Shown here: in pieces, positions 12,016 to 15,857 of the stretch
Position numbering within the stretch: position 1 is the first letter of the stretch
How the letters are laid out: each line of letters opens with the position of its first letter
From: Erysipelothrix inopinata
GTDB taxonomy: Bacteria; Bacillota_I; Bacilli_A; Erysipelotrichales; Erysipelotrichaceae
Length of the DNA: 32,000 bases
Direction of reading: 5' to 3'
Assembly: GCF_014396165.1 (NCBI RefSeq)
Contig: NZ_CP060715.1
Span: 1,860,001 to 1,892,000 of the forward strand
The notes under the pieces: generated by a model
Told to the model about the DNA's origin: nothing
The model's input: only the letters and a program-made list of their open reading frames with translations
Databases searched by the model: none
Program-made: the position numbers and the translations under genes

Positions 12016-13030
12016 CCTGACCACCTTTCCCATATACTTCTTCAACCATCTCTGAAACATAGTTCATGAGTGATACGACACGACCATATTCCATACGGCT
12101 CGGTCCCACAACCATTAATTGATGTTCTTCATCATCAATCGTTGTTAATTTACTGGATACAACAGCCATATCATCAAGCCAGATCATTTCACTATGTTCA
12201 CTGGATTGTAATGGTGTATGTTTATGGCCTTCAGAAATTTCACGCCATAACTGACTGTTTTCTAGCATATCCATCAATTGTCTTAATTTACCTATATTCT
12301 CAAACTCAGGTTGATACAACATGTTCTTCTCACCACTGAGATAGACTTCATCTTGAGCAAACTTAACGAATGCATTTACGAATGCCTCAAACAATGCTTC
12401 ATACTGTACAAGTCTTGCGGATAAGATAGGTCTTAAACCTTCCATCTTATCAACGATTTCTGAAAGCACTGTTCCTTTAAGACGCTCATTTAAGATTGAA
12501 GTACATGACTCAATATCCTCAACGGTAACTTCTGTTTCAAAGTTGAAGATACGATGCTCTGCATGACCTGTTTCAGTTACAAAGACTGCCATTGCACTTA
12601 ACTCGTTTAATGGAATCAATTGTACTGAACGAAGTTTTTCATCCATAGCACTTGGTCCTAAGACAACCGTTGTTAATTTCGTCATTTGAGATATGATATC
12701 ACCACTCTGACGGATTGCTTCTTCAATACCCAAACGTCGATCCGAGAAAATTTGAGCAATGGCTAATTCAACAGCCTGATTGCTTTCATCTTCCATGAGA
12801 TGTTCAACATAGAATTGATATCCTTTTGTTGAAGGAACACGACCACTCGATGTGTGTGTTTTCTCAAGAAGCCCAATTTTTTCCAAGTCCGACATTTCAT
12901 TTCTTATCGTTGCAGACGAGTAAGGTAAATTGAATTTATCAATTAACGTCTTTGAACCAACCGGTTCAGCAGTATTAATAAACTCTTGAACAATCGCTTT
13001 AAATATCTCTATTTTGCGCGGTGTCAACAT
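11993..13030 (-). CDS. hrcA: Heat-inducible transcription repressor HrcA
   Basis: N-terminal winged-helix MLTPRKIEIFKAIVQEF..EPVGSK. Located upstream of grpE-dnaK-dnaJ. ATG 13030 is preferred because AGGAGG lies 9 nt upstream, inside the longer track ORF. Confidence 0.92.
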
Positions 13031-13074
13031 AGTTTCTCGCCTCCTAGAAAGCACCATTTTCTGTGCCTAATAGT

Positions 13075-13103
13075 ATTGTATAATAATCGTTTAGCACTGT
13101 CAA
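13075..13103 (-). promoter_or_regulatory. Sigma-A type promoter of the hrcA operon
   Basis: Minus strand reads TTGACA (13103-13098), 17 nt, TACAAT (13080-13075). The -35 box lies inside the CIRCE spacer. Confidence 0.65.
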
Positions 13104-13117
13104 GGGTTTAGTGCTAA
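13091..13117 (-). promoter_or_regulatory. CIRCE (HrcA operator) overlapping the hrcA promoter
   Basis: TTAGCACTA-AACCCTTGA-CAGTGCTAA, 8/9 match in each arm to TTAGCACTC-N9-GAGTGCTAA. Confidence 0.85.
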
Positions 13118-13160
13118 AAGTGAAAAATTATCTTCTATTCACAACTCAATCGACTTCCAC

Positions 13161-13189
13161 AAATAGAAAAGAGCACCTAAATGGTGCTC
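13161..13189 (-). terminator. Rho-independent terminator after the 49-aa ORF
   Basis: Stem GAGCACC/GGTGCTC (13171-13177 / 13183-13189), 5-nt loop, then TTTTCTATTT on the minus strand. Begins 4 nt after the stop codon at 13193. Confidence 0.6.
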
Positions 13190-13192
13190 AAT

Positions 13193-13342
13193 CTACTGAG
13201 ATGAATCTTTCAATAAAAATATACCCAGAATCAAAATAAGAATTCCTGTGTTAATATAGAAAGCTCGAATTTGATTTTGAGACAAGAGCAAGACAGACAT
13301 CGTCACACCGTAACTTATTAAAACAATCGACTTATGAATCAT
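13193..13342 (-). CDS. Unannotated 49-aa two-TM peptide (candidate immunity protein): MIHKSIVLISYGVTMSVLLLSQNQIRAFYINTGILILILGIFLLKDSSQ
   Basis: Hand translation of the minus strand. ATG 13342-13340 begins 1 nt after the TGA (13346-13344) of the upstream peptide gene. TAG stop at 13195-13193, followed by a terminator. Below the 60-aa cutoff of the ORF track. Confidence 0.45.
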   Translation of the reverse strand: MIHKSIVLISYGVTMSVLLLSQNQIRAFYINTGILILILGIFLLKDSSQ

Positions 13343-13343
13343 T

Positions 13344-13688
13344 TCAATAAAATTTCCGATACGTTCCTAAGTAATTAACGACAAATGCCGCACCCAGTCC
13401 TACGATACCCGAAAATATCGGTCCACCCATTGTATTCGCAATATTCATGATACTACCACCCACATTTCGAACAAGTAACCCTTTCCCAGCATTTAAATAT
13501 TGGAGTGCATAGGGGCTCGTTTTACCTAGAGTTCTACTTATTGTATTCACAATGGTATAAACAGCAGCACTTTTTTTAGCCAGACCATAAAGGTTTTTTC
13601 CTAAAATTGCGGCATCAAAGCCTCCCCCAATCTCAATCATTTCTTCATGTCCCAGCAGGACAGCATTACTTGGGTACACTAAATCCAT
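13344..13688 (-). CDS. Double-glycine-leader peptide precursor (114 aa), candidate class II bacteriocin-like peptide
   Basis: The leader MDLVYPSNAVLLGHEEMIEIGGG has L(-12), E(-8), M(-7), I(-4), G(-2), G(-1). The 91-aa mature part has 6 K, 3 R, 1 D, 0 E, no Cys, and a Gly-rich hydrophobic C-terminus. GGAAGGAAG SD. Confidence 0.6.
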   Translation of the reverse strand: MDLVYPSNAVLLGHEEMIEIGGGFDAAILGKNLYGLAKKSAAVYTIVNTISRTLGKTSPYALQYLNAGKGLLVRNVGGSIMNIANTMGGPIFSGIVGLGAAFVVNYLGTYRKFY

Positions 13689-13744
13689 TAAATCTTCCTT
13701 CCTTTTATGTCACACCTCTAAGTACGCATGTCCTCATAGGTTCC

Positions 13745-13774
13745 TAAAAAAAAAGAAGTTGCATTCAACTTCTT
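13745..13774 (-). terminator. Rho-independent terminator after the TM2-domain gene
   Basis: 9-bp stem AAGAAGTTG/CAACTTCTT (13753-13761 / 13766-13774), 4-nt loop, run of 8-9 U on the minus strand. Confidence 0.72.
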
Positions 13775-13775
13775 A

Positions 13776-14138
13776 CTATATCATCAATAATTGGTTCAAA
13801 TTATAATCACGTACACGGCCTTGAATTTGGAAAATATCAATCAACCAAAGTAAACCACACAGACCACCTGTTACCAACTTAAGTAATCCCATTCCGATAT
13901 CTCCCATCAAGAATCGATCCAGCCCAAACTCACCAAAAAATATTGAGACAATTAACATCATCGTCGGATCTTTAAACTGCATAGACATTGCAAAGAGAAA
14001 TTGATGATCCGTCATTCCCATTAGTCGATTGTGAACAAACGGAATTTGTGCGTTATCAAAATACTTTCCGTTATTCATTAAAAACATACGGACTTCACGT
14101 TCGCGTAAATCACGCATTGTATCGTTAGATTCAGTCAT
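13776..14138 (-). CDS. TM2 domain-containing membrane protein
   Basis: C-terminal FGEFGLDRFLMGDIGMGLLKLVTGGLCGLLWLIDIF matches the TM2 pattern (G.DRF..G....G..KL.T.GG.G.W...D). Start set to ATG 14138 (MTESND), 7 nt after AGGAG. Confidence 0.75.
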   Translation of the reverse strand: MTESNDTMRDLREREVRMFLMNNGKYFDNAQIPFVHNRLMGMTDHQFLFAMSMQFKDPTMMLIVSIFFGEFGLDRFLMGDIGMGLLKLVTGGLCGLLWLIDIFQIQGRVRDYNLNQLLMI

Positions 14139-14182
14139 AGAAACACTCCTTCCGTTTTTATAAGTATATTTTATCACGCTCA

Positions 14183-14527
14183 TTAAGGGATGTATAGAAA
14201 TATGGCTCTATAAAGAAATACGACAACAAAAACAGTCGTTAATATAAAGAGTAACTTTTGGCTTCGTTTCGAATTTATCCAATCCGCAAGAACCATTACA
14301 TACAAAGGCGCTAACCAAAAGAGTGGATGAAAGTATAAAGCATCTGAGATGTTTAAATTCAAAAAGGAAATCCAAGCACGACTCATTCCACAAAAGGGAC
14401 ATGGAAGATGAAATACAAACCGACTTAAACATCCGATTTGCAGGATATTAATGACCCCTACAAAAATCAAGGCCAGAATTACGAACTCTCGATTTTTTCG
14501 AGTATTCCAATTCTTAAATGCATTCAT
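14183..14527 (-). CDS. DUF2752 domain-containing membrane protein
   Basis: CPFCGMSRA motif (CP.CG.TR-like) followed by hydrophobic helices. Start set to ATG 14527 (MNAFKNW) behind AAAGGTGG. Confidence 0.7.
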   Translation of the reverse strand: MNAFKNWNTRKNREFVILALIFVGVINILQIGCLSRFVFHLPCPFCGMSRAWISFLNLNISDALYFHPLFWLAPLYVMVLADWINSKRSQKLLFILTTVFVVVFLYRAIFLYIP

Positions 14528-14666
14528 GATTTGACCACCTTTCGTTGTAATTGTTTTCACACCCTCTGAAATATTTACATATTTACCTGAAAACTGTTTC
14601 ACTTTGTGTTAAATTATGTTACCATCTTCAACATAGAAGGAAATTATATATTAAGGAGTGATTTAT

Positions 14667-15857
14667 ATGGAAGTTTTTATGAACAGCTTTGTCATCGACA
14701 ATAGCTTCTTCTATTTTACCATTATTATGATGGTATTTGCGATTGGAGATTGGGTTGGTATTTTATCAAAAGCCAAGATTTCATCAGTATTTGTGGTAAT
14801 GCTGGTATTTCTTCTTGGTTTCATGTTTGGTATCTTTCCAGAAGATATCGTGGAAAAGGCAAAATTAACGCAACTTGCGAGCATGGCTGCAGCCATCCTT
14901 ATATTCCACATGGGAACCATGATAAATCTCAAACAATTGATTGCGGAATGGAAAACAGTAGTTACAGCAGCATTATCCATGGTGGTTGTGGGTCTTGCAT
15001 GTTTATTATTAATCCCAGTTATTGGTAAAGAAAACGCAATTGTCGCAATTCCGGTATTAAATGGCGGTATTATTTCGACACAAATTATGTCCCAAGCAGC
15101 AACACAAGCTAATTTAGAGATAGCTGCTGTGTTCGCAGCCATACTTTATGCCGTAAAGAAATTTGCCGGATCGTATCCCGCATCCTTTGTCGGTATGAAA
15201 GAAGCAAAATCAGTACTTAATGATTATCGAAATAATCCAAAACAAACAGTAGCTAAAGAGAACATGACTGAAAAAGCAGGATTCGCACAAACACATGAAC
15301 GTTATTTTACTGATTTCACGTGTCTAATGATTAGTGTTTTATTCGCTTGGTTATCGGTCTCCCTTAACAAAATATTCCCAAGTATTAATTATTCGCTTTG
15401 GGCACTCGCTTTCGGAGCAATTCTCGGATATAAAAAATGGGTTCCAGCCAAGATACTCGAAAAAGGAAAATCATCCGGATTTTTCTCAATGTTAGTGTAC
15501 GTCTCAATCCTCCCTTCCCTTGCAAAGGTTAAACTCTCGGATTTGGGAACTCTTGGTTTTTATATCGTTATTACACTCGCTGTCACAATTCTTGTTCTTT
15601 ACCTCGTCTTCTCTGTACTTCCGGGATGGAAATTGGTTAAGTCCAAGCACCTCGCATTTGGTATTTCTTTATGTCAATATCTTGGTTTTCCCGCAACATA
15701 CTTGATTGCTCAAGAAATATCAAAATCAGTTACAGATGATGAAACAGAACAACAAGTTGTCTTGGATCATATTATGCCAAGTTATGTTGTTGCTGGTATG
15801 GCTACGGTCACAACTTTATCGATTGTTGTCGCAAGTTTCTTAGTTAATTATATTTAG
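14667..15857 (+). CDS. Uncharacterised polytopic transporter-like membrane protein (about 396 aa), co-transcribed with the GGT-family gene
   Basis: About 10-12 hydrophobic segments split by a hydrophilic central loop. AGGAG lies 8-9 nt upstream of ATG 14667. Only 9 nt separate it from the next gene. I could not assign a family by eye. Confidence 0.6.
   Translation: MEVFMNSFVIDNSFFYFTIIMMVFAIGDWVGILSKAKISSVFVVMLVFLLGFMFGIFPEDIVEKAKLTQLASMAAAILIFHMGTMINLKQLIAEWKTVVTAALSMVVVGLACLLLIPVIGKENAIVAIPVLNGGIISTQIMSQAATQANLEIAAVFAAILYAVKKFAGSYPASFVGMKEAKSVLNDYRNNPKQTVAKENMTEKAGFAQTHERYFTDFTCLMISVLFAWLSVSLNKIFPSINYSLWALAFGAILGYKKWVPAKILEKGKSSGFFSMLVYVSILPSLAKVKLSDLGTLGFYIVITLAVTILVLYLVFSVLPGWKLVKSKHLAFGISLCQYLGFPATYLIAQEISKSVTDDETEQQVVLDHIMPSYVVAGMATVTTLSIVVASFLVNYI

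Follow-up and report, generated by a model that had tools for sequence, protein, structure and literature searches.

A probable orphan rtg-type double-glycine peptide locus with a candidate immunity gene in Erysipelothrix inopinata

Introduction

What is a gene for a peptide with an export leader doing at a site where no exporter is encoded? The question is raised by two tandem minus-strand open reading frames (ORFs), of 114 and 49 amino acids (aa), in a stretch of 32,000 nucleotides (nt) of Erysipelothrix inopinata that was analysed as a whole (hereafter the window, whose positions serve as the coordinates of the pair). A preliminary description had proposed that they encode a bacteriocin-like peptide with a double-glycine (GG) leader and its immunity protein, and had regarded both the size of the mature peptide and the orphan position of the pair as unusual. 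Here we find that the leader, judged by its sequence, is a member of the published rtg signal-sequence class, and that its conservation, together with the linkage of relatives to transporter genes, strongly supports the 114-aa product as a predicted GG-leader precursor for a C39-peptidase exporter of the ATP-binding cassette (ABC) type. With moderate confidence we read the pair as an orphan rtg-type GG peptide locus, from which a bacteriocin-type peptide would be exported and a membrane protein would protect the producer.

Until now rtg-type GG peptides had been reported from Streptococcus pneumoniae alone. Experiments established RtgAB, which combines a C39 transporter with a ComB/BlpB-like accessory protein, as an exporter of RtgC and RtgG, two peptides that ComAB and BlpAB do not export efficiently (Wang et al. 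2020, mBio, PMC7018657). The hydrophobic positions of GG leaders are -4, -7, -12 and -15 relative to the cleavage site; RtgAB depends less on these four, and its secretion of the peptides is favoured by a motif unusually distant from the cleavage site, formed by residues -22 to -18 with P(-18) among them (PMC7018657). The signal sequences of RtgC, MELVLPNNYVDLEQEEMMYLDGG, and RtgG, MELILPNNYVDLEQEEMMYLDGG, are given in FIG S3 of PMC7018657; rtg leaders follow the pattern MELVLPNNYVxLExEEMMYLDGG.

Results

A GG leader is an N-terminal segment of 15-30 residues that ends in Gly-Gly, or in GA or GS, at -2/-1. If cleavage follows G23, the window leader places L at -12, E at -8, M at -7, I at -4 and G at -2 and -1, and contains one D and three E. 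A loose GG-leader pattern in the first 35 residues is matched by one of the 157 mechanical ORFs of the window and, on average, 0.05 times in each of 20 shuffled windows. The leader, MDLVYPSNAVLLGHEEMIEIGGG, is identical to pneumococcal rtg leaders at 11-12 of its 23 residues (four-sequence BLASTP search, E 2e-6 to 1e-4), the profile of its family matches RtgC, RtgG, RtgT and RtgW with 42-56 bits, and at -22..-18 it reads DLVYP, where RtgC/E/G/K/M/T/V/W read ELVLP or ELILP. What the window peptide shares with the rtg peptides is thus the 23-residue leader class with P(-18), the -22..-18 motif, EEM at -9..-7 and the GG. The pair, in which the 114-aa ORF (13344..13688, stop included) is followed by the 49-aa ORF (13193..13342), is laid out as follows, from its 5' to its 3' boundary; L001 and L010 are two further Erysipelothrix lineages.

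13753..13774, minus strand: terminator-like hairpin with T-run; ends the upstream DUF2752-TM2 operon and forms the 5' boundary of the pair
13708..13730, minus strand: invariant upstream element CATGCGTACTTAGAGGTGTGACA, identical in the window, L001 and L010
13694..13702, minus strand: Shine-Dalgarno-like sequence GGAAGGAAG, 5 nt ahead of the ATG of the 114-aa ORF, read from the sequence
13620..13688, minus strand: rtg-type double-glycine leader, codons 1-23, with predicted cleavage after G23
13347..13619, minus strand: cargo, codons 24-114, 91 aa, cationic, cysteine-free and predicted all-helical; stop codon at 13344-13346
13193..13342, minus strand: 49-aa two-helix membrane ORF, candidate immunity protein, 1 nt past the upstream stop
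13171..13189, minus strand: terminator-like hairpin (7 bp, 5 GC) with T-run, 3 nt past the 49-aa stop

The leader residues, residue counts, charge make-up, 1-nt ORF spacing and two hydrophobic helices given in the preliminary description all proved correct, as did its terminator after the 49-aa ORF (hairpin 13189..13171); to these we add that both ORFs lie on the minus strand.

Relatives of the 114-aa protein were searched among 5.8 billion proteins. An exhaustive HMMER search over 1.84 billion representatives returned only three distant relatives (32-35% identity), a single-protein scan of representative genomes only one, L010, and a tblastn search of plasmids with the window protein no match; a profile search recovered about 18 relatives of 105-132 aa. 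In the alignment of this family the leader is much more conserved than the cargo and has the consensus MELVLPxNYVELExEEMMYLDGG, followed by WS. Across 20 family sequences the GG is invariant, as had been anticipated for homologues; -8 is E or D, -7 is M, I or L, -12 is L, I or V, and -4 is L or I in 18. P(-18) is nearly invariant, and position -15, an Ala in the window leader, is Tyr in 16 of the 20. Among the three Erysipelothrix lineages the leader varies at -19, -17, -11, -10, -6 and -5 and never at -18, -12, -8, -7, -4, -2 or -1, so that I(-4), M(-7) and L(-12) of the window leader are unchanged in all three. Because the recognition positions are invariant while adjacent ones vary, this pattern supports a leader that is still in use by a peptidase domain.

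The genomic setting of the relatives points the same way. Wherever the contig extends upstream, they are tied to a three-gene cassette, made up of a Peptidase_C39 ABC transporter (~735-745 aa, split in L007), a protein of ~155 aa and an AprE/LcnD-like protein, with L003 as the sole exception. Relatives stand beside C39 ABC transporters in five distinct contexts:

L004, L005 and L006, Natronobacillus azotifigens: peptide directly behind the cassette
L007, metagenome bin: peptide behind the cassette; LytTR regulators
L008, NCBI metagenome-assembled genome: peptide behind the cassette; LytTR response regulator and kinase
L009, Logan contig: divergent Rgg regulator; peptide and small ORF inside the cassette
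L017, Joint Genome Institute metagenome: peptide behind the cassette

The same cassette occurs on plasmids pBTHD521-5 of B. thuringiensis and pCF007-D of C. estertheticum (L015, L016), where it is followed by peptides of 110-113 aa whose related leader, ..LPxNYV..EMEYxDGG, also has Pro at -18; RefSeq names the neighbours on both plasmids 'peptidase domain-containing ABC transporter' and 'HlyD family efflux transporter periplasmic adaptor subunit', and the peptide 'hypothetical'. The exception, L003, is an orphan relative among metabolic genes, and the leader of its clade (P0003/P0005) is divergent. The assignment of the 114-aa product as a GG-leader precursor for a C39 exporter, already made in the preliminary description, is thus strengthened both by consensus positions that are invariant or conservatively kept in the 20 family sequences and by relatives beside C39 transporters. 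An ordinary uncleaved membrane protein of 114 aa was considered and rejected on the same two grounds, leader conservation and transporter linkage.

The relatives also show how cargos and small membrane ORFs are arranged behind this leader. Downstream of the peptide, L002, L004, L007, L009 and L018 have an ORF of 45-84 aa with two or three hydrophobic helices; in L002 and L007 the stop-start spacing is 1 nt, as in the window. L018 (27-5497; also L019) is an array in which at least three rtg-type peptides differ in cargo and all carry one and the same leader, MELVLPNNYVEIEEEEMMYLDGG: a family member, a second 114-aa peptide also ending NNRVFY, and a homologue of RtgW, to which it is 46% identical along its full length. 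Between them stand multi-helix membrane ORFs, some small and some large, and pieces of an AprE-like gene. In L002 (11-575) a second, unrelated cargo (..MMYLDGG, then KRYSGAQGW..) with its own 79-aa membrane ORF stands directly upstream of the family member; since this second cargo carries the family leader, one leader is common to different cargos.

Every C39-transporter cassette linked to an rtg-type leader includes a soluble protein of ~153-165 aa, usually between the transporter and the LcnD/HlyD-like gene. Its family has at least 421 members, with weak Pfam matches to DUF5085 and GyrI-like, and some are annotated 'AraC family transcriptional regulator', 'GyrI-like small molecule binding protein' or 'effector-binding domain-containing protein'. 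None of the 120 matches listed is named Erysipelothrix, and the description of the pneumococcal rtg locus does not mention the protein. Its positions in the cassettes are:

L004, 7677-8144
L007, 8196-8663
L008, 8165-8626
L009, 4351-4827
L015, 6164-6637
L016, 6304-6801
L017, 2475-2951

The 114-aa protein is identical to WP_187533643.1 / QNN60515.1, a 'hypothetical protein [Erysipelothrix inopinata]', and is also found on several Logan contigs; L001 and L010 (metagenome-assembled genome named Erysipelothrix sp.) carry 95%-identical versions at the same site, between the TM2 gene and hrcA. Pairs of the three lineages differ in this gene by 31-43.5 synonymous and 6.5-9.5 non-synonymous changes, which gives a ratio of non-synonymous to synonymous divergence (dN/dS) of 0.04-0.05 in frame against 1.2-3.8 off frame. 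The gene is clearly coding and under strong purifying selection, and because of this dN/dS a chance ORF can be rejected.

Synonymous divergence (dS) is unevenly spread over the locus. Between the window and L001 it is 0.53 in the peptide gene and 0.12-0.20 in the TM2 gene, the 49-aa ORF and hrcA; between the window and L010 it is 0.12 in hrcA and 0.68 in the TM2 gene. This mosaic suggests recombination or an allele exchange limited to the peptide gene.

The 49-aa ORF begins one base past the stop of the 114-aa gene (junction TGA-A-ATG), and its hydrophobic stretches span residues 2-20 and 24-46. It keeps its start, its stop and all 49 codons in the three lineages, with 4.5-11.5 synonymous and 4.5-13.5 non-synonymous differences per pair and a dN/dS of 0.27-0.31 in frame against 0.8-2.2 off frame, and is thus conserved, as the preliminary description had supposed. 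It was fairly called untracked there: a single draft assembly, L014 (GCA_030149845.1), has it called as a gene, the Logan contigs leave it uncalled, and the proteins that the collection shows for the complete E. inopinata genome do not include it. The ORF is probably a real gene, and the recurrence of its 1-nt junction in L002 and L007 suggests that it is translationally coupled to the 114-aa gene. Its product probably protects the producer, a role to which its position points, because a small membrane ORF follows the peptide in most relatives.

The cargo has 91 aa with six K, three R, one D and neither E nor C (charge +8, pI 10.06, 9.6 kDa). Its N-terminal half is amphipathic, a Gly-rich hydrophobic stretch covers about residues 86-109, and the conserved C-terminus reads LGxYRxFY. 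Cargos of the 20 family sequences measure 82-99 aa and carry net charges of +3 to +12, and most members end in LGxYRVFY. In an AlphaFold2 model of the 114-aa protein the leader is disordered except for a short helix at residues 16-19, and the cargo is all-helical, a predicted shape that fits a membrane-active peptide. A Foldseek search of the model against PDB gave nothing below E 4.7, and the family profile found only noise among PDB sequences (E >= 0.33). The 114-aa protein has no usable Pfam or NCBIfam match, and none to PF10439 (Bacteriocin_IIc) at E up to 1; five of 19 relatives match PF10439 below threshold (best E 0.0043), and TIGR03949 matches one relative at E 0.45. When the cargo was compared with those of RtgC, G, T and W (the RtgE, K, M and V cargos being left out), mature-only BLASTP was not significant and the mature-only profile stayed below 7 bits. 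Neither ORF of the pair has a usable Pfam or NCBIfam match, and the expectation in the preliminary description that no unrelated intracellular family would claim the 114-aa protein is borne out.

Terminator-like hairpins flank the pair. That upstream is retained in L010 as a hairpin with a different inner stem and loop; that downstream, whose stem is retained in L001 and L010, sits between the pair and the hrcA promoter. The Shine-Dalgarno-like sequence of the 114-aa gene is the same in L010 and has one change in L001. Ahead of it, the 23-nt stretch 13708..13730 is invariant in the three lineages and unique in the window, and within 13708-13745 the hexamers TTAGGA and TACTTA, which do not follow the sigma-70 consensus, hold a 17-nt spacing while the spacer varies. 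We infer that this element is a candidate activator-dependent promoter or operator; the pair may be expressed by read-through. ComX and SigH boxes upstream of the 114-aa gene were considered by eye and dropped as poor matches. An RNA fold of the 5' region suggested pairing of the T-run with the ribosome-binding site, which is not significant (z = -1.4), and a search of 12900-14300 against Rfam gave no match.

Discussion

Our work here suggests how an orphan pair of small genes could form a bacteriocin-type module. We hypothesize that WP_187533643.1 is the precursor and that an RtgA-like ABC transporter, which we infer to be encoded elsewhere in this genome, would use its C39 peptidase domain to recognise the anionic leader through P(-18) within DLVYP, L(-12), E(-8), M(-7), I(-4) and G(-2)G(-1). 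The leader would be removed after G23 during export, and the freed, cysteine-free helical peptide would most likely insert into the membranes of competing relatives as an unmodified class II-type bacteriocin, with killing as the presumed outcome, while the translationally coupled two-helix membrane protein would most likely confer immunity on the producer. In the pair as originally proposed, it is the GG precursor that gains support from leader and linkage; the support for the immunity half is positional.

Several of our results weigh against this proposal. Among the Pfam-scanned ORFs of at least 100 aa in the 32-kb window there is no C39 ABC exporter, HlyD/LcnD-like protein, Rgg or LytTR regulator, which agrees with the earlier report of no exporter, accessory protein or regulator. 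No leader in the family diverges more than that of Erysipelothrix (A for Y at -15, G for D/E at -3), where dN/dS reaches 0.10, threefold the 0.03 of the cargo. A sigma-70 scan from the upstream terminator to the 114-aa start found no promoter, and AlphaFold2 confidence is moderate (mean pLDDT, the predicted local distance difference test score, 66; cargo ~70-80). The best Pfam match of the 49-aa ORF, to Imm17, has E 0.22 and 11.9 bits (cut-off 25), and NCBIfam gives none; the ORF has a weak ribosome-binding site and only moderate constraint. The small ORFs downstream of the relatives show no detectable similarity to it, to each other or to known immunity families (the 45-aa ORF of L018 does not align with it), and L003 has no small ORF downstream of its peptide at all. 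Finally, no antimicrobial activity is known for any rtg-type peptide (PMC7018657; 2026 review): the authors left Rtg peptide function undetermined, speculating on a bacteriocin role since immunity-like genes follow most of them (PMC7018657), and the 2026 review holds nothing further on it.

The lack of an exporter within 32 kb and the divergence of the leader would suit an orphan that is no longer exported; the precursor or peptide would then work in or on the membrane of the cell that makes it, and the 49-aa protein would counteract it. They would also suit a pair kept mainly for immunity. RtgAB-negative pneumococci likewise mostly keep rtg peptides with no obvious secretion route, for which a secretion-independent function has been proposed (PMC7018657), and the other orphan clade, that of L003, has a divergent leader too. 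We nevertheless consider loss of export unlikely, as the recognition positions stay constant in the three Erysipelothrix lineages while their neighbours vary, a pattern to be expected only of a leader that a peptidase domain still reads. Moreover, GG peptide genes remote from their transporter are common (PMC7018657), and the annotation of at least one E. rhusiopathiae genome, that of strain WH13013, has 'bacteriocin ABC transporter' genes on an island, an indirect hint only. A bolder version, in which the pair is a domesticated bacteriocin/immunity module that does without export in a genome lacking an RtgAB-like transporter, and the peptide is a holin-like or stress-linked effector in the cell's own membrane, encoded directly upstream of the hrcA operon under its heat-shock operator, with the 49-aa protein as antagonist, strikes us as quite improbable.

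The peptide could, conversely, be exported for signalling, adhesion, biofilm formation or host colonisation and not for killing, like pneumococcal VP1 and BriC, with the 49-aa protein a receptor, a modulator or an unrelated membrane protein. Besides bacteriocin activity, links of GG peptides to biofilm formation, colonisation and dissemination are on record (PMC7018657), the rtg locus gives pneumococci a colonisation advantage with no known mechanism (PMC7018657), and the pair stays at a fixed chromosomal site in three lineages under strong constraint. A Gly-rich hydrophobic cargo of this length and charge is, however, unlike known pheromones, no receptor kinase is adjacent in the window, and a variable small membrane ORF for each relative, together with different cargos under one leader (L002, L018), is the usual bacteriocin/immunity layout, so that we give such a role little credence. 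As to the 49-aa ORF, that it is a non-coding 3' region open by chance, with the 114-aa gene the only real one, would explain why most gene callers pass over it, would match its weak ribosome-binding site and the absence of any homologue found outside the genus, and gains from a dN/dS that is noisy because the differences are few. It is hard to reconcile with a start, stop and length retained although L010 differs from the other two lineages in 15-17% of nucleotides, with the in-frame constraint and the retention of both hydrophobic helices, with a terminator placed after this ORF and not after the 114-aa gene, and with small membrane ORFs at the corresponding position in five relatives' loci; we regard a chance ORF as very doubtful. 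We therefore retain the reading of an exported bacteriocin-type peptide with its protective membrane protein.

Neither of the two features that the preliminary description found unusual sets the pair apart from the rtg peptides. Rtg cargos span 78-103 aa (from the full Rtg sequences in PMC7595303 S1 Table), so that 91 aa is a normal length for the class, and a downstream immunity-like hypothetical gene is likewise common to both. The absence of an exporter from the window stands, yet such absence is no rarity: GG peptides without a linked transporter are documented, and most RtgAB-negative pneumococci still carry rtg peptides (PMC7018657), which gives the orphan position of the pair a precedent. 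rtg-like loci moreover hold relatives of the window peptide, with Rgg divergent from the transporter in L009 and the RtgW homologue in the L018 array. In contrast to the rtg peptides, the window peptide is found in Erysipelothrix, not Streptococcus, its diverged leader precedes a cargo of no detectable kinship to those of RtgC/G/T/W, and around the pair, flanked by the DUF2752-TM2 operon and hrcA-grpE-dnaK, neither RtgA/RtgB nor an Rgg/SHP pair was found. The non-streptococcal cassettes also differ from pneumococcal rtg in the extra ~155-aa protein between transporter and accessory gene.

Class II bacteriocin cargos usually have 25-60 aa, about half the size of the window cargo, which also lacks a PF10439 or NCBIfam bacteriocin match. 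In common with class II systems such as lactococcin A (with LcnC/LcnD/LciA) and the Blp pneumocins, the pair has an anionic GG leader, a cationic Gly-rich hydrophobic cargo, no modification genes and a small membrane gene directly downstream, and the relatives' loci have C39 ABC and LcnD-like export. Among the class IIa microcins of Enterobacteria, microcin V (88-aa mature peptide) and microcin L (90-aa mature peptide) resemble the window peptide in mature size, GG leader, C39 ABC export, an unmodified Gly-rich peptide and an adjacent small immunity gene; in contrast, they are Gram-negative systems with 15-residue leaders and a need for TolC, and no sequence relation to the window peptide was detected (no Pfam match at E up to 1). 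The orphan GG peptides CibAB, BriC and BlpK-out of pneumococcus (PMC7595303) lie, like the window gene, far from any C39 transporter with terminators of their own; unlike it, they use ComAB/BlpAB-type leaders without the rtg N-terminal motif.

What is new here is the undescribed cargo family, the genus and the orphan position; the rtg-type GG peptide class itself was already known, and the proposed mechanism is standard class II bacteriocin biology that calls for no new principle. The rtg leader class, with its distal P(-18) motif, is spread over Bacillota, in Erysipelothrix and Natronobacillus and, as related leaders, on the B. thuringiensis and C. estertheticum plasmids; genes for a transporter, the ~155-aa protein and an LcnD-like protein form the conserved cassette linked to it, and its cargos include at least one family, of ~20 members, that is described in no database. 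The leader motif as text was not found in the literature, which holds only annotation-level mentions of Erysipelothrix bacteriocins. Within a genus that includes animal and human pathogens, the pair would provide a first bacteriocin candidate of this kind and, being small, unmodified and cysteine-free, offers a convenient model for asking whether rtg-type cargos are bacteriocins.

Genomic surroundings

On the 3' side, the terminator of the pair is directly followed by the hrcA promoter and then hrcA, grpE, dnaK, dnaJ and clpB. At 13075-13117 (minus strand) an inverted repeat, TTAGCACTA-N9-CAGTGCTAA, resembling the controlling inverted repeat of chaperone expression (CIRCE), overlaps a near-consensus sigma-70 promoter (TTGACA-17-TACAAT); it is the standard heat-shock operator.

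On the 5' side, 13776-14602 (minus strand) holds a two-gene membrane-protein operon, in which the DUF2752 gene (139 aa) shares one base with the TM2-domain gene (135 aa); gene callers begin the TM2 gene 15 codons later, which gives 120 aa. A functional tie between this operon and the pair was considered and rejected, given the terminator between them and the absence of such neighbours from the relatives' loci. Further upstream, 14658-15857 (plus strand) encodes a 399-aa multi-helix membrane protein without a Pfam family, beside a gamma-glutamyltranspeptidase gene, a pairing that is kept in L010-L014.

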